A stretch of DNA of 64,000 bases, taken from the NCBI GenBank assembly GCA_963719505.1, contig CAVRCF010000001.1, forward strand, positions 1,184,001 to 1,248,000. The letters run 5' to 3'. The notes under the pieces are model-generated. The model did no database searches. It saw nothing but the letters and a program-made list of their open reading frames with translations, and was not told the origin of the DNA. Positions 1-6,894 of this stretch are shown here, one piece after another (position 1 is the stretch's first letter; each line of letters starts with the position of its first letter). This DNA comes from Halobacteriovoraceae bacterium. Its GTDB lineage: Bacteria; Bdellovibrionota; Bacteriovoracia; Bacteriovoracales; Bacteriovoracaceae. The position numbers and the translations under genes were made by a program.

Positions 1-1125
1 CATTATGATGTATAATTCGTCTCGATGCTGCTTTTTTACGATTATCGAATCATGTACAGTCAGACAAGCGATCTCTTTACTATTTAGCACCTTTATACAC
101 TCTATCATGATGCTAGAATCTTCTTTCTGTAGTCTAGTTCCTTCTTGTCTGTAGAAGAACTCAGAAATGGCTTTATGCTTATCTTCAATCGCTGCAACAA
201 GAGCTACAACCTTCTTTCTAACCCTCTTTAGGTTAAATTCATCAAATCCTTCTTGAAGCTTATTAAAAATCGAATTCACAGCAACCCCGTAAGATTTAGA
301 ATTTAACATTATTAAAAGGGCTATTTTGATATCATCTCTCGAGAATCCATGGATGTTATAAATATCTTCAGGTCTTTTAACATCCTTTGCTAGATACAGA
401 AGGGTTGGGTGCAGAGCTTTAAAATCGATTTCTACCGTTGCTTCGTTGTCAAATGTGATCGTTTCTCTTTCGGATTTTGATAAATTCGTGCAGCTATTAT
501 AGATTCGGCCGCCTAAATTCAAATCGGAAGAACTATAGACAATGCTGAGTTCCAGAGAACATAAAGGCCTGAAGGCTGTATCAATGATAGTGTTGTTTAG
601 AAGCTCTACGTGTTTGCTCATTATCGAGTCTCGGTACTGGATCTCAGTTTTTTTATCAGCATCTATTTGGACTTGGACCTTAGTCTTTATACCTTTTTTG
701 GATTTGTCTTTTTCCTGAGCCCGGGCTCCTCTCCAAATCACCGTCCTAACTAACACCTTATCTATCTCATCCTTATTTTCAGCAAATATCTTTTCGAGTT
801 TCTGGGTACGCTTTATTCTTGTTGGTATCTTTTGCTTCTCACTTACTGAATGCATCACTAGAGTCACATAGGCATTATTATGAAGCCACTCTATAATAGG
901 CGATACTGTATACTGATTAAAACTTAATGTCCTGAATTTAGACACTCCAACCAATTCATGCTCGAGATAAAGATTGATTAAAGTTAAGTGAAGGAAATCG
1001 CGGTGCTTATGCCCTCTAAGCTTTTTACCTAAAGATTTGATGTATTCATCGTAAATCAAATCTGTAACTATCCCTGAAAAAGGCTTGATATAATCTCTGA
1101 ATTTCTTGTAATCAACTTGATACAT
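1..1125 (-). CDS. Family A polymerase-like protein (TV-Pol-like palm domain), C-terminus runs off the window
   Basis: Hand-translated open frame from ATG 1125 (GGAG RBS 6 nt upstream; in-frame ATG also at 1170) to position 1 with no stop. Motifs in order: LGGRIY, EIDFKALHP (motif A), R..IK (motif B), RLQKEDS, LTVHDSII (motif C). Absent from the ORF track because the stop is outside the window. Confidence 0.75.
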   Translation of the reverse strand, partial: MYQVDYKKFRDYIKPFSGIVTDLIYDEYIKSLGKKLRGHKHRDFLHLTLINLYLEHELVGVSKFRTLSFNQYTVSPIIEWLHNNAYVTLVMHSVSEKQKIPTRIKRTQKLEKIFAENKDEIDKVLVRTVIWRGARAQEKDKSKKGIKTKVQVQIDADKKTEIQYRDSIMSKHVELLNNTIIDTAFRPLCSLELSIVYSSSDLNLGGRIYNSCTNLSKSERETITFDNEATVEIDFKALHPTLLYLAKDVKRPEDIYNIHGFSRDDIKIALLIMLNSKSYGVAVNSIFNKLQEGFDEFNLKRVRKKVVALVAAIEDKHKAISEFFYRQEGTRLQKEDSSIMIECIKVLNSKEIACLTVHDSIIVKKQHRDELYIIM

Positions 1126-1155
1126 TATTCTCTCCATTTGAAGTTTCAAAAAATG

Positions 1156-1184
1156 TTGAAACTTGGCCATAGCTCCATTATACC
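1156..1184 (-). repeat. Copy 3 of island motif (GGTATAATGGAGCTATGGCCAAGTTTCAA), overlapping a sigma70-like promoter of the polymerase gene
   Basis: 14/14 identity (GAGCTATGGCCAAG) to the copy at 6505-6537; TCGAGA-17-TATAAT on the minus strand; overlaps a 9-bp inverted repeat at 1141-1164. Confidence 0.65.
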
Positions 1185-1237
1185 TTCGAAGATTTTTTCT
1201 CTCGATGCCCCATAAACATTGGTCTTCAGAGTCTTTT

Positions 1238-1250
1238 TAAGTGATTGATT
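1238..1250 (-). promoter_or_regulatory. IHF-like binding site
   Basis: Minus strand AATCAATCACTTA matches WATCAANNNNTTR exactly; lies in a divergent intergenic region of the island. Confidence 0.4.
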
Positions 1251-1413
1251 TCCCTTCCTTAAATTACAAAGTGTCAAATAGCTGAACAGCTTCACCATTC
1301 AAAGTGTTTAGTTTGAATACAAAGCCTTGAGCTCTGAGTTTTTGATTATTTTCGTCTCGAACTAAAAAGGTATATTTACAGAAACAGAGAAGAAAGAAAC
1401 AAAAGGAGTTCAG

Positions 1414-1905
1414 ATGAGGTTGATATGTATGATAATTTTATTTTTTGCTAGTTTAGAGGTTTTTTGCCAAAGCCATATTGTGAGGCAAGGTGAGAAACTT
1501 GAAAACATTGTTTCTGAGAGATCCGGGCTTAGTGGATATGATCTGATTCTTGAGGTAGGTAGAATTTCTGCTCTCAATGAGCTTGGCAACCCTCATCATA
1601 TTGAACCTGGCCAGATTATCTCGTTCGATCCTGAAGAAAAATCAAAGAGAACTATTAAAACGATCGTTAAAAAAGTCTATATCGTCACCCCAGAAAAACT
1701 AAACACCCTTTCAACTTCATTCGGTCTATCTCGAACCCAAGCTAACTGGAGGGTCGATGCAAATCAAAGAGATGTGAATATAAGTTATGAGTGGGAAACA
1801 AATGTTCGTCTTAATTACATACGTCATTTTAAAAATTCTGACTTCAATGCTGGAGGTTATATCGGAAACTCTGAATTTGGAGCATCTATCGGTTGGGATT
1901 TCTAA
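1414..1905 (+). CDS. Secreted LysM-domain protein with beta-strand C-terminus
   Basis: Signal peptide; HIVRQGEKLENI...LNELGNPHHIEPGQII LysM pattern; ends in IGWDF; AGGAG RBS. Confidence 0.65.
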   Translation: MRLICMIILFFASLEVFCQSHIVRQGEKLENIVSERSGLSGYDLILEVGRISALNELGNPHHIEPGQIISFDPEEKSKRTIKTIVKKVYIVTPEKLNTLSTSFGLSRTQANWRVDANQRDVNISYEWETNVRLNYIRHFKNSDFNAGGYIGNSEFGASIGWDF

Positions 1906-1970
1906 TAAAGGTATATTTTACTTGTGAATAATACACGCACAATGCCTGAGTAGGCAAAGAGAGGTTTTTT

Positions 1971-2636
1971 ATGTTTAAGTTATTGAAAAAGGGAATCAAG
2001 ATTATTGTTCTAACTGTCATCGCACTGATTTTAGGTTTTAAAATGTGCTCCGGTCCAGACAAAGAAGTTATTAAAAAAACACCACAACCAGAAGAATCAT
2101 TGTCTTTTAAGATTCCCAAAAGCTTGGTTGGTAAGCAAATTTATACATGCGATATTCAATCTTTGTACAATGTAGAAGTGACTGCTGAATGTGCATGTAC
2201 TCAAAGCGAGTGCAATTTCAAAGTTAAGCCTATCGATTTGTTTTGGAGTGCTGATTTAAAATTAAATATTGGAGATGGAAATACAATCTATCGCTCTTAC
2301 AAAAGAGATAGGGATTATTCAGGAAGTTGTACTGGATCTAGTTTTAGCGGGTGCGATAATTGGGAAAAAAGAAAAGAAGAAGTTATAGATAGTAAAGAAA
2401 CTATTCATAAACTAAAAGTTAATAGATGGATTGAAAGATATGCACAGAGAGAAAAAGAGAAAACCTGTGAAATTTCTGAGCAAATCAACGCTGAAGTGAC
2501 TACTGAATGTGCATGTACCAAAACAGAGTGTCTTGTCGGGATCACTCCAACGTATGATAAATGGGATGTAGAGCTCAAAATCAGTACCAAAGATAAAAAG
2601 CCCAAGTTCTACCGATTACATTCAAAAAGAAAATAA
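1971..2636 (+). CDS. Membrane-anchored Cys-rich protein with internal duplication
   Basis: N-terminal TM helix; TC.I....N.EVT.ECACT..EC repeated twice; GAGG RBS. Confidence 0.7.
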   Translation: MFKLLKKGIKIIVLTVIALILGFKMCSGPDKEVIKKTPQPEESLSFKIPKSLVGKQIYTCDIQSLYNVEVTAECACTQSECNFKVKPIDLFWSADLKLNIGDGNTIYRSYKRDRDYSGSCTGSSFSGCDNWEKRKEEVIDSKETIHKLKVNRWIERYAQREKEKTCEISEQINAEVTTECACTKTECLVGITPTYDKWDVELKISTKDKKPKFYRLHSKRK

Positions 2637-2697
2637 AGAGCACGTCTTAAATAAATTGTATTAGGCCCTACGGGGCTTAATTCCTTAAGGAGGAAAG

Positions 2698-3951
2698 ATG
2701 AAAAAAATATTTTTTTTACTATTAACAATATCTAGTTTGATCTCGTGTAGCAAAAAGGAAGACACGAAATTAGTTGATGCATTCGACATTCCACCAGTTA
2801 AGCAAACTAATAATACGCCTGTGAGTTCTAATGATTCAGTTCTAACGAGGTTCAATAGAGTTTATAATGACTCTCTACAAGCTTCTGATAGCGATTCTGA
2901 CCCACTTGTGTATTCATTGGTGACTAATGCCTCAAATGGAGTTGTTGTAATTACAGATAGCTCTTCAGGCTCTTATACATATACTCCCAATACTGGTCAT
3001 GTAGGAGCTGATAGTTTTGAGTTTAAAGTAAACGATGGAACAGAAGACTCTAACACTTCTCTTGTGAACATTGACGTTAAAAACCCCGAAACAATCTATG
3101 TCGGCACTAGCAATGGACTATCAATTTCTACTGATGGCGGTTTAACTTTTGTAAATAGACTGGAGACTTTAGATGTTAAAGATATTCAAATAACGGAGTC
3201 GGGCGATATCTATGTCGGAACAAACTTCGACATTTATATTTCTACTGATGGAGGTTCAACCTTTACTTCAAGATACTATGGTAGTGATGATTTCGTTAGT
3301 ATGTATATTGACAGCTCAGGCGCTATCTTTGTTGCGACAGACTGGGAACTGCTAAAGTCTACAAATAACGGACTGTCATTCAATTCTTTACTCTCTTCTT
3401 CATTGTTACAATCGGTAGATGGCGATGATTCAGGAAATATTTATGTTAGTTATGAGCTCTTTGGTTTTTCTATCTCTACTGATGGAGGAAGCAACTTTAC
3501 TAATTATTCAACAGCAAATGGACTTGGAAGTGATGATTTGTTTTCTTCTTTTGTAGATACTAACGGAACAATCTATGCATCAACCTTTAACGGTTTATCA
3601 ATTTCGACTGATGGAGGAAGTAACTTTACTAACTATACAACTGTAAATGGACTTGGAAGTGATGATTTGTTTTCTTCTTTTGTAGATACTAACGGAACAA
3701 TCTATGCATCAACCTTTAACGGTTTATCAATTTCGACTGATGGAGGAAGTAACTTTACTAACTATACAACTGTAAATGGACTTGGATCTAATCAAATAAC
3801 TTCAGTTTTTGCTGATGGCTTTGGTGGTGTTTACGTAGGAACTGTTAATAGTTTCAATATATCATTCGATAGTGGAGAGACTTTCATTAATTTAACAACA
3901 GCTGCCGGTTTAGCCGGTAATGGCGTCAGTGAATTAGTAGTAATAGAGTAG
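2698..3951 (+). CDS. Lipoprotein with cadherin/Ig-like domain and BNR/Asp-box beta-propeller repeats
   Basis: Lipobox LISC; DSDSDPLVYSL...YTYTPN..HVGADSFEFKVNDG Ig-like motif; repeated ISTDGG.xF Asp-boxes. Confidence 0.8.
   Translation: MKKIFFLLLTISSLISCSKKEDTKLVDAFDIPPVKQTNNTPVSSNDSVLTRFNRVYNDSLQASDSDSDPLVYSLVTNASNGVVVITDSSSGSYTYTPNTGHVGADSFEFKVNDGTEDSNTSLVNIDVKNPETIYVGTSNGLSISTDGGLTFVNRLETLDVKDIQITESGDIYVGTNFDIYISTDGGSTFTSRYYGSDDFVSMYIDSSGAIFVATDWELLKSTNNGLSFNSLLSSSLLQSVDGDDSGNIYVSYELFGFSISTDGGSNFTNYSTANGLGSDDLFSSFVDTNGTIYASTFNGLSISTDGGSNFTNYTTVNGLGSDDLFSSFVDTNGTIYASTFNGLSISTDGGSNFTNYTTVNGLGSNQITSVFADGFGGVYVGTVNSFNISFDSGETFINLTTAAGLAGNGVSELVVIE
3516..3786 (+). repeat. Exact 129-bp (43-aa) in-frame tandem duplication, 2.1 copies
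   Basis: Unit starting AAATGGACTTGGA at 3516, 3645 and partially 3774; nucleotide-identical. Confidence 0.95.
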
Positions 3952-3974
3952 AAGTGTAAATTTCCAGATTTGAT

Positions 3975-4175
3975 CTATCTTATGACTTGAACTGGAACCG
4001 CATATCTCTCATTATTCGATATCTGGGATTCAACAGTCCCAGATATATTAACATGACTGTAATCAATTACTTTTTCTATTCTTGAATACATAATCACATT
4101 AATGATTAAAATAAATAAAAGTAGGACGTTTGATCGTTCTGTCCAGATTTGTTGTACAATTTTGTTATCTTTCAT
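3975..4175 (-). CDS. Small single-TM hypothetical protein
   Basis: 66 aa, hydrophobic VLLLFILIINVIMY, GGGAG RBS. Confidence 0.55.
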   Translation of the reverse strand: MKDNKIVQQIWTERSNVLLLFILIINVIMYSRIEKVIDYSHVNISGTVESQISNNERYAVPVQVIR

Positions 4176-4341
4176 TTTTAACTCCCATTACTCACTAATT
4201 TTAACATGAATTCTCTTATTCAGAGTGAGACTTTGTCTTAATTTATATTAAGCCTCAAGTCGTTAATCCAATATCTTCATATTAAGATGAAATTAATCCC
4301 GTTTTATTGTATAGTATCTATATCAAGTACTAAAGGAACTT

Positions 4342-5010
4342 ATGAAACTCGTTTTCATTTCGGACACTCATTCTAAACATCGTGAGCTAGGCAAGCTTGC
4401 TGGAGACATCCTTATTCACTCGGGTGACTTCACCACGAAGGGAGAACTAGAACAAGTTATAGACTTCGTTGATTATCTCTCCAGTTTAGAATTTAAAAAC
4501 ATCATAGTCATCTCCGGTAATCATGATTTCTGCATGGAATCAAATAGCGATATTAGAGAAGAGTGTGAAAAGATATTTAAAGATGCGGGAATAATATATC
4601 TCAATGATAGTGGAGTTACGATAGAAGGCCTTAAGTTTTTTGGATCTCCAGTATCTCCGCATTTTGCAGGATGGGGGTTCGAAAAGACTCGCGGTACTGA
4701 TATTAAGAAGCATTGGGATTTAATACCAGCTGATACTGATATTCTAATAACTCATGGTCCAGCGTTCGGTCTTTTAGACAGAACTCTCGACGGAACAAAC
4801 GTAGGCTGTGAGGACCTCAGAGAGCGTATTCACGAAATTAAGCCCTTAATCCATGGTTGCGGCCATATACATGAAGCATACGGCGAATTGGAGTCTGAGG
4901 GGACATTGTTTATAAACGCTTCTTCCTTAGATATTTTTTATCGCTGTATAAATGATCCAATCGTCGTTGATCTTAAAAAAGACAAGGACGGAAAATACTC
5001 ATACAGATAG
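4342..5010 (+). CDS. Calcineurin-like metallophosphoesterase (MPPED/239FB-like)
   Basis: ISDTH, HSGDFT, SGNHD, ITHGP, CGHIHE motifs. Confidence 0.9.
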   Translation: MKLVFISDTHSKHRELGKLAGDILIHSGDFTTKGELEQVIDFVDYLSSLEFKNIIVISGNHDFCMESNSDIREECEKIFKDAGIIYLNDSGVTIEGLKFFGSPVSPHFAGWGFEKTRGTDIKKHWDLIPADTDILITHGPAFGLLDRTLDGTNVGCEDLRERIHEIKPLIHGCGHIHEAYGELESEGTLFINASSLDIFYRCINDPIVVDLKKDKDGKYSYR

Positions 5011-5051
5011 TAACGACTAGCAAAGAAATAGATTTAACAACTCTGATAGGA

Positions 5052-5285
5052 ATGACTGTCACGGTGAGTGATGAACATGAAAAGTTAACCACTGACGAGA
5101 AAACTGAAATCGTAATACTTTTAAGGGAAATTGGTCATATGTATGACTTTGCTGAAGAGGGGACCGAAATAGTTACCAAGATCTATGAAGATATTTACTT
5201 CTCTTATATTAAAATATCTCAAAACTCTGATATTTCCAAAGGTGAACTAAATATGCTAATTTCTAAGCTTGCTTCAGTTAAGTAG
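5052..5285 (+). CDS. Hypothetical protein
   Basis: 77-aa ORF, co-oriented downstream of the phosphoesterase. Confidence 0.5.
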   Translation: MTVTVSDEHEKLTTDEKTEIVILLREIGHMYDFAEEGTEIVTKIYEDIYFSYIKISQNSDISKGELNMLISKLASVK

Positions 5286-5305
5286 TTCCACTAAACTTGA
5301 GCAAC

Positions 5306-5701
5306 CTATTTATCTTCACTAGATATAGTCTGAATCTTATCGATATTCATTAATAATATAAGCTCTATATTAAAGCTCTGATGTACAAGGCAACGGAACT
5401 CCTCAAATGAATCTGAGTGTTTGATGGCAAAATCAATAAGTGTCTGATTATCTGGTCTTTTGAGACATGTATTGATGGTTAATCCGTCAGACTTAATGAT
5501 ATGTAAAATCCCTCGCATAAATTTAGGGAAATAACCTTCTCCACAGTATTCCAATACAAGTTTGTATTCATCGGTATTCAGAACATCTGCAATCGCTTCC
5601 CTGGATAGGGAAGTGTAAAAATTCAAAATATTTGAGATGTCTAAAGCTTTATTGTAAGCCTGGTTATTGTAAAAAAGCTCACCTTGATCATATAGTTTCA
5701 T
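5306..5701 (-). CDS. Hypothetical protein, paralog of 5688-6086
   Basis: Start reassigned to ATG 5701 (GGAGG RBS); aligns by eye with its neighbour (LNFY, G...II..DG, SF..FR). Confidence 0.7.
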   Translation of the reverse strand: MKLYDQGELFYNNQAYNKALDISNILNFYTSLSREAIADVLNTDEYKLVLEYCGEGYFPKFMRGILHIIKSDGLTINTCLKRPDNQTLIDFAIKHSDSFEEFRCLVHQSFNIELILLMNIDKIQTISSEDK

Positions 5702-6086
5702 GACTCTTATCCTCCGAATTTTTTGTAATAAATGTTTTAAGTACATCTACAAAAGCAAAAGCTAACAGAACTCGGAATGATGCAAAGGACTTAGAATTTT
5801 TCGCACAGTAATCCACAATCATATCTTTTGTTTTGTTAGACAAAGTCGTTTCTGTCTTAGCTCCGTCATCTGTAATGATTGTTATTAGCCCTTTGTAGTG
5901 AATTATCTGGAAGTGACCATACATTTCAAGTAACTCCTCTCCAACTGATTTATTCAATTCATCTACTATTGTTTCGTTTGTTGTAGGGATTGGCATATAG
6001 AAATTGAGGACTATAACTTTATCTGCCGCAGCGGATATGTTTCCGTTGTCATAATCTTCCTTTGCTTGATTATACAATATTTGCAT
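5688..6086 (-). CDS. Hypothetical protein, paralog of 5306-5701
   Basis: Start reassigned to ATG 6086 (AAGGA RBS); overlaps next gene start, suggesting coupling. Confidence 0.7.
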   Translation of the reverse strand: MQILYNQAKEDYDNGNISAAADKVIVLNFYMPIPTTNETIVDELNKSVGEELLEMYGHFQIIHYKGLITIITDDGAKTETTLSNKTKDMIVDYCAKNSKSFASFRVLLAFAFVDVLKTFITKNSEDKSHETI

Positions 6087-6345
6087 CAGCTTTTTCCTTG
6101 TTATATTGTGTGCAAAATTCACTTTACAATATAGATTGTAACACACTGCGCTGGAGTTTGCAACGCTTCTTGTCAGATTTATAGTTTTCAACCTCCAAAA
6201 ATTCAAAAAACCTCATAAAATTACTAAATACCTAAATTTATCCTCATAAAACTCATCAAAATCTCTAAATACCCTAATAAAGATATTTCAAACTCTCTTG
6301 ATGCCTTGCTGTAGGAGCTCTCAGTCTATCTGGTTTTTTTCTGTG

Positions 6346-6537
6346 CGGTATAATTAGAGCTATGGGCAAGATTTGAAGAATTTCTTCAGAGTTCTGAAAG
6401 TCTGTATTGGATTACTAATGCTGATCTCAATCATTGGAAGAGATCAAAAGGCCAAGGATGGTCAATATCCAATCAAAAACTCAAAGCAAACTAGCAATTT
6501 AGTCCGGCATTGTTAGAGCTATGGCCAAGATTTGAAG
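6346..6537 (+). repeat. Two 33-bp direct repeats (6346-6378, 6505-6537; 29/33 identical, period 159)
   Basis: CGGTATAATTAGAGCTATGGGCAAGATTTGAAG versus CGGCATTGTTAGAGCTATGGCCAAGATTTGAAG. Confidence 0.9.
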
Positions 6538-6609
6538 GTTTTATAAGTCCCTAAAAACCCACTTTATTGACACTTTAATGAGTAAAATCTATTATTTAGG
6601 CAACTTTAG

Positions 6610-6634
6610 GGTTCGAATCCTGCTGGTTGCGCCA
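6610..6634 (+). other. Duplicated tRNA 3' end (attR-type site), probably tRNA-Arg
   Basis: GGTTCGAATCCTGCTGGTTGCGCCA = T-loop, 3' T-stem, acceptor strand, discriminator G, CCA; the upstream sequence does not form the 5' half of a tRNA. Confidence 0.85.
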
Positions 6635-6894
6635 TTTATCTTATAACTTCTCCAAAATGACCGATTTACCCATTATGACACGCTAAAGTTGTGTAGATAA
6701 AAACAATGTTCGTCGCGTTATATCCTACCAAATGTTAAATACTATAGTTTTAAATCTTGATAGGATACTCAATCGGTAAGGCATAAAAATTATCCTTGCT
6801 AGGTAAGTTTTGATACCCTTTAACGGTGTAGGACTAAAAATGATAAAATCTAACGAGTTAAGGACTTAATCATTTTTAGAAAAACAGGGACGTA

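Follow-up and report, generated by a model that had tools for sequence, protein, structure and literature searches.

The left edge of the 64,000-nucleotide stretch of a Halobacteriovoraceae bacterium genome analysed here (the window; G000:C1:1184001-1248000) was found to carry the gene of a compact polymerase, hereafter the island polymerase (P0001), which lies in a 22.75-kb island inserted at a tRNA-Arg(TCT) gene. As judged from its predicted structure, the protein is a genuine but much reduced relative of DNA polymerase I (Pol I) with a minimal family A fold and no exonuclease. It fits the TV-Pol (transposon-virus polymerase) family, in the subset with an N-terminal domain that travels with integrases and resolvases, and is a new member of an already known but unannotated enzyme group. 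The island polymerase probably serves as a TV-Pol-type primase-polymerase with a fused N-terminal domain that replicates the island; from fold, conservation and context we infer that priming and/or copying of the excised island is its best-supported function. What is gained for this window is a well-founded annotation and no new principle. An earlier reading of the window from its letters alone (the original prediction) had proposed a compact, TV-Pol-like family A polymerase in a tRNA-integrated, satellite-like element.

The polymerase gene and its conservation

The long open minus-strand frame noted in the original prediction covers 390 codons of the window and closes 18 codons further left. 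When the frame was extended into the genome (L002, an extension with 18 kb left of the window) and translated, the complete protein was found to be 408 aa. All five palm motifs that had been named were recovered by translation in the order given for them, and the gene is present as a single copy in the genome. The gene and the parts of its product are located as follows.

Window 1..1170, minus strand: TV-Pol-type gene, 390 of 408 codons, ATG start, open at the left window edge.
L002:17944-17997 (left of the window), minus strand: last 18 codons and stop of the polymerase gene, from the open reading frame (ORF) list and translation.
Window 733..1116, minus strand: N-terminal domain, residues 19-146, winged-helix-like in the predicted structure and fold searches.
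Window 1..729, minus strand: minimal family A-type polymerase domain in the predicted structure, residues 148-390 in the window (148-408 in the full protein).
Window 505..513, minus strand: GGR (G220-G221-R222, then I-Y), beta-hairpin before the palm, from translation, conservation and hhalign.
Window 406..432, minus strand: motif A, EIDFKALHP, with predicted catalytic D249, from translation, conservation and hhalign.
Window 301..339, minus strand: motif B or O-helix equivalent, R278-x3-K282-x7-N290 (RDDIKIALLIMLN, RDDIK...N), from translation and conservation.
Window 115..132, minus strand: LQKEDS, from translation.
Window 46..57, minus strand: motif C, VHDS, with predicted catalytic D374, from translation and conservation.

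The host genome also encodes a canonical PolA (Pfam DNA_pol_A, E 1e-157; open frame of approximately 878-891 aa), so the island polymerase is not the housekeeping enzyme. A word-indexed protein search returned 7 relatives only. With exhaustive HMMER and a 6-sequence profile, the number of cluster representatives was 10,158 at E<=1e-3, 7,380 at 1e-10 and 2,946 at 1e-30. The island polymerase and 141 relatives, taken from the 150 best rows plus the hits of the first search, were aligned after 13 sequences had been dropped, P0002 and P0008 as fragments and P0038, P0060, P0078, P0097, P0106, P0107, P0116, P0138, P0146, P0149 and P0150 for two matched stretches or a deviant length. The aligned relatives share approximately 20-33% identity with the island polymerase. 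Six positions (G221, R222, R235, D249, K282 and D374) were invariant in all 142 sequences, and R278, N290, H373 and E247 were each present in 141. Y271 was found in 139 sequences, S375 in 138, D269 in 136 and H254 in 127. With such conservation the named motifs cannot be put down to chance. A lack of conservation of the palm Asp pair, which had been named beforehand as grounds for giving up the polymerase assignment, was thus not the case, since both residues were present in 142/142.

The alignment also bears on whether the polymerase fold could be catalytically dead, with the protein acting only as a DNA-binding regulator or initiator. In the literature on PolA-SSB pairs, some of the Pol components are described as possibly vestigial. 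Here, however, even relatives this divergent keep both metal-binding Asp residues, the RxxxK pair and the hairpin Arg with almost no exception, which is the pattern expected from selection on catalysis, and we regard a dead fold as very improbable.

In spite of its size, the family is invisible to automatic annotation because no Pfam or NCBIfam model matches it. Pfam gave no match to the island polymerase at E<=10, including DNA_pol_A (PF00476) and the exonuclease models, and none of 76 relatives scanned matched a polymerase or nuclease family. NCBIfam gave none for the island polymerase or for seven of eight relatives, and chance-level, unrelated rows for the other two proteins scanned. In PHROGs the island polymerase falls in family 4756 (E 3.3e-43), the function of which is unannotated; a language-model look-up returned unnamed clusters only, and the homologues that bear a source name are all called 'hypothetical protein'. 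Islands and many phages thus carry a replication-type enzyme that automatic annotation does not see.

Predicted fold and N-terminal domain

The AlphaFold model obtained with the 142-sequence alignment had a pLDDT of 85.2 and a pTM of 0.76. Its polymerase part, approximately residues 148-408, comprises thumb, palm and fingers, with beta strands at 209-212 and 220-224 forming the hairpin before the palm. The absence of a PolA-type palm from a structure model had likewise been named in advance as counting against the assignment; palm, fingers and thumb were all modelled. In a Foldseek search against the PDB, all 50 listed rows were family A DNA polymerases or mitochondrial single-subunit RNA polymerases. 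The best row, the apicoplast Pol 9qsc_A (E 3.3e-4), was the sole listed row at E<=0.001. When 48,161 PDB chains were scanned independently of Foldseek with VIA-align, ranks 1-15 were all family A DNA polymerases or T7-type RNA polymerases (Z 9.2-13.4). T7 RNA polymerase (3e2e_A) and yeast mitochondrial RNA polymerase (6ymv_A) reached Z 13.4 with 333-339 residues aligned at a root-mean-square deviation (rmsd) of 6.1-7.7 A, compared to Z 13.3, 222 residues and 3.6 A for the apicoplast Pol 9qsc_A (apPol) and Z 12.7, 215 residues and 3.3 A for Klenow (1d9d_A). In a library of viral models, eleven phage proteins of 400-450 aa matched over their full length (TM 0.53-0.72, E 3e-19 to 8e-15), and one of the eleven carries the depositor label 'DNA polymerase'. 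No 3'-5' exonuclease domain had been recognised originally, and this stands: no Pfam model matched, and the approximately 146 residues that precede the polymerase domain were modelled as a small domain of helices and a hairpin.

In the whole-protein model, residues 22-143 matched winged helices of the MarR type, the best being HsmR (8za5_A; Z 8.3, 102 residues aligned, rmsd 3.4). Folded alone with 31 homologous segments, the domain had a pLDDT of 81.5. Its best match was then at Z 6.9 and the listed rows were almost all winged-helix proteins, and Foldseek returned nothing for it at E<=0.001 (best E 0.055). Because these scores lie below the aligner's own trust level, the winged-helix assignment is tentative. 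On the predicted structure the domain is probably DNA-binding, and it could be aligned in 31 full-length homologues.

Probable membership in the TV-Pol family

According to the account of Iyer 2008 (PMC2579912), TV-Pols have a minimal family A core of 400-600 residues with a hairpin Arg, two Asp residues, a fingers Asp plus RxxxK and no nuclease. The same source associates them either with a D5 helicase partner or with an N-terminal domain and integrase, resolvase or transposase neighbours, and describes them as replacing primase domains ahead of D5 helicases in other elements. These features were matched one by one, in support of the TV-Pol-like polymerase first proposed. A minimal core without nuclease was found in the model, in the fold searches and in the Pfam results for the protein and 76 relatives. 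The hairpin carries R222 (142/142), and the palm carries D249 and D374 (142/142), whose aligned counterparts in the host PolA are the Asp residues of motifs A and C. The fingers carry D269 (136/142) together with R278 (141/142) and K282 (142/142). The N-terminal domain is present in 31 homologues, and a recombinase neighbourhood was found in 27/36 loci and, as an integrase, in the island itself.

No direct sequence match was secured between the island polymerase and a protein named as a TV-Pol in Iyer 2008. In phage Ma-LMM01, HMMER gave no match to the family profile, and an hmmsearch of the first 50 kb with filters off gave a best E of 1.8. An hhalign of the family with the Ma-LMM01 protein MAP_030 (506 aa) gave E 0.023, and with a 5-member MAP_030 family E 3.9e-4 at a probability of 35% over 157 collinear columns. 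These columns span GGR, D, H, K, N, LQ and HD, including the family-specific His and Asn. We take MAP_030 to be the Ma-LMM01 TV-Pol of Iyer 2008, an unconfirmed guess from its size and the adjacent transposases.

The sole enzyme tested among those listed as TV-Pols is CcPol, described as a dNTP-using primase-polymerase with a DNA-binding partner, MP (Bebel 2020, PMC7581432). As reported there and in Rice 2023 (PMC10061031), CcPol alone merely extends primers, and priming needs the SSB-like, OB-fold protein MP. A full-text literature search on such enzymes with a winged helix gave nothing beyond Iyer 2008, Bebel 2020 and Rice 2023.

Active site and relation to Pol I and T7-type RNA polymerases

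The family profile was aligned by hhalign with 14 PolA C-terminal regions. Under relaxed settings the alignment was collinear, with GGR placed on TGR(LSS) of the host PolA segment 'TGRLSS..PNLQNIP', Q.IP on QNIP, D249 on the Asp of DYSQVELR, R278 and K282 on the motif B R and K, LQ..DS on IQGTAAD, and VHDS on VHDE. In this weak mapping (E 0.039), H254 is aligned with the steric-gate Glu of Pol I and N290 with the O-helix Tyr. The Glu is the steric gate of Pol I, and the O-helix Tyr is common to Pol I and T7 RNA polymerase; T7-type RNA polymerases carry HDS in motif C. The Pol I signature was not found at the aligned columns, where the family has His (127/142), Asn (141/142) and HDS (138/142).

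These residues, together with the fold searches, raise the alternative that the protein is a small single-subunit RNA polymerase that transcribes the island genes or makes RNA primers, with the winged helix binding the promoter. The two highest Z scores belonged to T7 and yeast mitochondrial RNA polymerases, motif C reads HDS as in T7 and not HDE as in Pol I, and a His replaces the steric-gate Glu. With the 6-sequence profile, the lone row among PDB sequences was motif C (HD) of human mitochondrial RNA polymerase (E 2.7, not significant). Nevertheless, the two RNA polymerases were aligned at an rmsd of 6.1-7.7 A, compared to 3.3-3.6 A for Klenow and apPol, the Tyr that Pol I and T7 RNA polymerase have in common is Asn here, and CcPol is described as preferring dNTPs. 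The gene that adjoins the polymerase gene is sigma-70-like, which suggests that transcription by the host RNA polymerase is directed by the island. Neither a promoter-specificity loop nor an N-terminal RNA polymerase domain was identified in the island polymerase, without residue-by-residue examination. We consider an RNA polymerase distinctly unlikely, and a DNA product would be expected of the island polymerase.

Distribution and genomic neighbourhoods of the relatives

The family was located with a 3-sequence alignment at 36 genomic loci in Pseudomonadota, Desulfobacterota, Bdellovibrionales, Chlamydiae, Spirochaetes and others. The neighbours were clustered and one representative per cluster was scanned. 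Tyrosine integrases (clusters at 11, 9 and 4 loci) and serine recombinases (10 loci) were found at 27/36 loci. In a blastp recount with the representatives, a recombinase lay within 8 kb in 24/37 loci; the island's own locus was a miss in this recount because its integrase is approximately 15 kb away. A scan of the nearest two ORFs per side at 47 loci (148 ORFs; 25 families listed of 61 found) gave 11 Phage_integrase, 2 Resolvase, 5 HTH_3 and 4 HTH_17, and no helicase, primase or SSB family was among the 25 listed. Within the phylum the family was present in 3/201 sampled genomes; so patchy a distribution is in keeping with a mobile gene. In another genome of the same phylum (L062; G104:C53:87149-91297), a copy of the family with two in-frame stops (TAG and TAA) is probably decaying.

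In phages, homologues of approximately 550 aa were found in 235/50,697 records (114 of Rheinheimera and 97 of Vibrio), sometimes at two places per genome. Those listed or inspected, for example L064 (OR472329.1) and L065 (OZ196882.1), were all labelled hypothetical. In the two phage neighbourhoods inspected, nearly all genes were unnamed and the few named ones did not adjoin the homologue. No close relative was found in metagenome contigs. Twelve contigs of a viral collection also carry a homologue. One of them, the IMG/VR contig L069, is 13,249 nt long with a 99-nt terminal repeat and is probably circular. It encodes ParA, a serine recombinase and RepA (PF10134, E 3e-55), with the homologue approximately 650 bp downstream of RepA, and would be a suitable model for whether a TV-Pol works with a separate initiator.

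The separate RepA of L069 is among the points that favour a primer-dependent DNA polymerase only, which would extend host DnaG primers or nick 3' ends and copy or repair island DNA. The behaviour of CcPol without MP points the same way, as do the lack of any MP-like gene seen beside the island polymerase and the match of the fold to primer-dependent family A polymerases (Z 12-13). On the other side, processive family A enzymes are much larger than this domain, the model shows a reduced thumb, template binding could come from the fused N-terminal domain as it comes from MP in the case of CcPol, and TV-Pols are described in place of primase domains ahead of D5 helicases elsewhere (PMC2579912). 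A role confined to primer extension appears unlikely.

The tRNA-Arg island

The island is approximately 22.75 kb long and the polymerase gene lies approximately 17 kb into it. That the element is tRNA-integrated, as first proposed, was confirmed by the tRNA-Arg(TCT) gene, the adjoining tyrosine integrase and a copy of the tRNA 3' end at the other border. A 25-nt pattern of the tRNA end gave one exact match in the window and one in L002, compared to 0 expected by chance, and reading both sequences lengthened the identity to 28 nt. Extension to the left, which had been suggested as a check, thus gave the 18 C-terminal residues, the integrase and the tRNA, but no helicase partner on that side. 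The island features outside the polymerase gene are the following.

L002:1835-1911: tRNA-Arg(TCT), left boundary of the island.
L002:2010-3251: tyrosine integrase beside the tRNA, from Pfam.
L002:8594-9781, minus strand: 395-aa metallophosphatase-like protein of the phage T5 A1-type 'DNA transfer protein' family (phrog_1745, E 1.8e-50).
L002:9791-10321, minus strand: HNH_3 endonuclease adjoining the T5 A1-like gene, from Pfam.
L002:11811-14465, plus strand: 884-aa protein with FtsK/SpoIIIE ATPase, Mrr_cat and a C-terminal helix-turn-helix (HTH), from Pfam.
L002:16905-17459, minus strand: 184-aa protein like a small phage-type sigma-70, next after the polymerase gene.
Window 1171..6609: right arm, probable cargo, with two predicted secreted proteins, a Big_9/propeller-repeat protein and a metallophosphoesterase, from ORFs and Pfam.
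Window 2698-3951, plus strand: 417-aa secreted Big_9/propeller-repeat cargo protein with two near-identical internal repeats of approximately 43 aa.
Window 6610..6637, plus strand: attR, exact 28-nt copy of the tRNA-Arg(TCT) 3' end, right end of the island.

The island also holds a second, short integrase-family gene, and its recombinases are of the tyrosine type. An AbiEi-like gene, below the Pfam cut-off, and an M48-like peptidase fragment were also found. The 884-aa protein looks membrane-anchored by eye, from an N-terminal hydrophobic stretch, and may be an island DNA translocase of unusual architecture. The sigma-70-like protein was below cut-offs in NCBIfam (E 0.002-0.025), and its language-model neighbours (0.96) were mostly Sigma70_r2; an island-encoded sigma factor would imply a transcription programme of the island's own.

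The satellite-like character attributed to the element in the original prediction is not supported. Among 10 island proteins scanned in PHROGs, no capsid, portal or tail family was matched and there was no sign of helper dependence, and a prophage or satellite reading was rejected. Of the head-and-packaging families only a terminase was hit, weakly (E 1e-4) and at the P-loop of the FtsK-like protein. A scan of this extent does not establish that the island lacks genes of these kinds.

In a genome of the same genus (L087; G002:C105:36000-44053), examined for an empty site, the right-flank gene has an orthologue approximately 1.3 kb away from a tRNA-Arg(TCT) gene; the orientation of the tRNA relative to that gene is opposite, and the left-flank gene is not there. 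The island flank region is rearranged between the two genomes, and the comparison gives no clean empty site but does not contradict the island either.

The content of the island and of the phage genomes bears on a possible role in conflict, in which the polymerase would be a phage-interference or anti-defence enzyme that makes, for example, aberrant DNA on an invading phage genome. Such a role would explain its presence in both islands and large lytic phages. The family occurs in 235 phage records amid unnamed early-type genes, sometimes twice per genome, and the island carries the AbiEi-like gene, the Mrr-type nuclease domain and the T5 A1-like gene. In contrast, the steady companions of the family are recombinases and small HTH proteins and not known defence effectors (no defence-model scan was run), and on L069 the homologue lies inside a RepA-ParA replicon module. 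We consider this explanation to be quite remote.

Repeats near the polymerase gene

Two stretches left of the window were considered as candidate origins.

L002:16009-16300 (G000:C1:1182009-1182300): iteron-like array of seven direct copies of TGGTCGCTTTT, five of them exact GGTGGTCGCTTTT.
L002:17460-17943: 485-bp non-coding gap after the polymerase stop, rich in short direct and inverted repeats.

Three of the seven copies in the array are at 29-bp spacing. The array lies between two genes for predicted secreted or lipoproteins, approximately 1.7 kb left of the window edge, and may be an origin or an operator. Genome-wide, the iteron 13-mer with <=1 mismatch gave 7 matches compared to 10 for the reversed control, and is not over-represented; its clustering stands out, with 6/7 of the genome-wide matches within 186 bp in the array. 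When 10-mers present at least four times within 400 bp were sought near the gene, a comparable array was found in 1/37 loci only, the island's own. Iterons were therefore rejected as a conserved partner of the family, and a link between protein and repeat is unsupported. Tandem repeats detected by TRF at a low threshold within approximately 500 bp downstream occurred in approximately 10/36 loci, against a background of several per locus, and are not counted as evidence.

The 485-bp gap, an alternative candidate origin, contains a 24-bp repeat in two copies 63 nt past the stop, two copies of TTCAGAGGCT and one CTCTGAAAG/CTTTCAGAG pair. A promoter and terminator scan around the polymerase gene gave counts no higher than in shuffled sequence, and Rfam gave no match at E<=0.1 across L002:15800-19450.

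Proposed function

The mechanism that we favour, and consider probable, begins with excision of the island by the integrase. The polymerase would bind island DNA through its N-terminal domain and make primers and/or short DNA stretches on the island origin, and the circular form would then be copied with the host helicase and replisome. The island polymerase would in this way occupy the place that a pri or rep gene has in other integrative islands.

Several findings weigh against this mechanism. No helicase was found by Pfam among 20 island ORFs (those of <140 aa being unscanned), and no SSB partner was recognised, the 485-bp gap after the polymerase gene holding only ORFs of 33, 34 and 49 aa; D5-linked TV-Pols and CcPol-MP-Cch2 do have helicase or SSB partners. 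Plasmids are almost devoid of the family (2 and 3 of 72,556 records), which would be unexpected if the protein could start replication unaided. L069, the one circular element recovered, has a separate RepA, so a TV-Pol is not necessarily the origin binder. The sole clear iteron array is 1.65 kb from the polymerase gene, behind two genes, and has a counterpart near none of the other loci. The winged-helix match is below the aligner's trust level (Z 6.9-8.3). At the level of sequence, the hhalign match of the family to PolA is marginal (E 0.039, probability 1.3%), and the 142-sequence profile gave nothing at E<=10 against PDB sequences. Since the mapping onto PolA rests on this weak alignment, it does not tell whether dNTPs or NTPs are chosen. 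Beside the active site, three features depart from Pol I (His for Glu, Asn for Tyr and HDS for HDE), and substrate and even primer dependence are not readable from the sequence.

A bolder form of the favoured mechanism, which we put forward only tentatively, is a one-protein, origin-specific initiator-primase, in which the winged helix reads repeats and the Pol I-type domain starts dNTP chains de novo. The repeats recognised would be either the seven copies of TGGTCGCTTTT or those of the 485-bp gap that follows the gene, and the family-wide His and Asn would be adaptations that let a Pol I-type site hold the initiating nucleotide. Such a protein would replace Rep, DnaG and the SSB-like partner of CcPol. 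If true, bacteria would have a third major, unannotated class of primase, one that spans >10,000 sequence clusters without any database model.

Enzymes of this type were predicted computationally in 2008 and, going by the published accounts cited above, are nearly untested, one distant and differently built relative (CcPol-MP) having been assayed. At stake are whether a Pol I-type site can prime alone when fused to a DNA-binding domain, what effect the His and Asn have on sugar selection, and how islands that lack a helicase replicate after excision.

Comparison with known systems

The island polymerase has palm, fingers and thumb in common with family A DNA polymerases (Klenow, Taq, Bst, apicoplast Pol and T7 DNA polymerase; Z 12-13.3, rmsd 3.3-4.8 A over 215-241 residues) and the same motif order of TGR/GGR, A, B, the QG..D segment and C. 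Unlike them, it has no DNA_pol_A match, no exonuclease and far smaller fingers. The fold superfamily is also common to T7-type RNA polymerases (T7 and mitochondrial; N4 RNAPII at Z 8.1), and the motif C context is alike (HD followed by a small residue), but the island polymerase is less than half their size and is aligned with them at a high rmsd (6.1-7.7 A). With regard to the iteron-plasmid initiators (RepA, Rep_3 and RPA), whose winged-helix domains bind iterons, it gave no Pfam match and its N-terminal fold is winged-helix-like at Z 6.9-8.3.

The role proposed here within the element would be the same as that of the primase-replication (pri-rep) modules of phage-inducible chromosomal islands and SaPIs and of the AEP prim-pols and piPolB of other mobile elements, as a replication starter encoded by the element close to an integrase and small HTH regulators. 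The catalytic folds of those systems are unrelated (AEP, DnaG or family B), and their modules usually contain a helicase or stand next to one.

The closest likeness in kind is to the TV-Pols of Iyer 2008 (PMC2579912), described as similarly patchy across bacteria and phages and as belonging to elements with a lambda-type integrase or resolvase. The N-terminal domain is given in that source as all-helical and uncharacterised, whereas in the predicted structure obtained here it is winged-helix-like. The CcPol-MP (SCCmec) and PolA-SSB primases of Bacillota likewise place an exonuclease-poor family A domain on an integrative element, where priming and extension of DNA with dNTPs have been shown for it. 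In the descriptions of PMC7581432 and PMC10061031, CcPol shares its operon with a helicase and large serine recombinases, has a separate MP and lacks a TV-Pol N-terminal domain. In contrast, the island polymerase has its N-terminal domain fused, with no SSB-like ORF recognised beside it and no helicase found, and travels with a tyrosine integrase.

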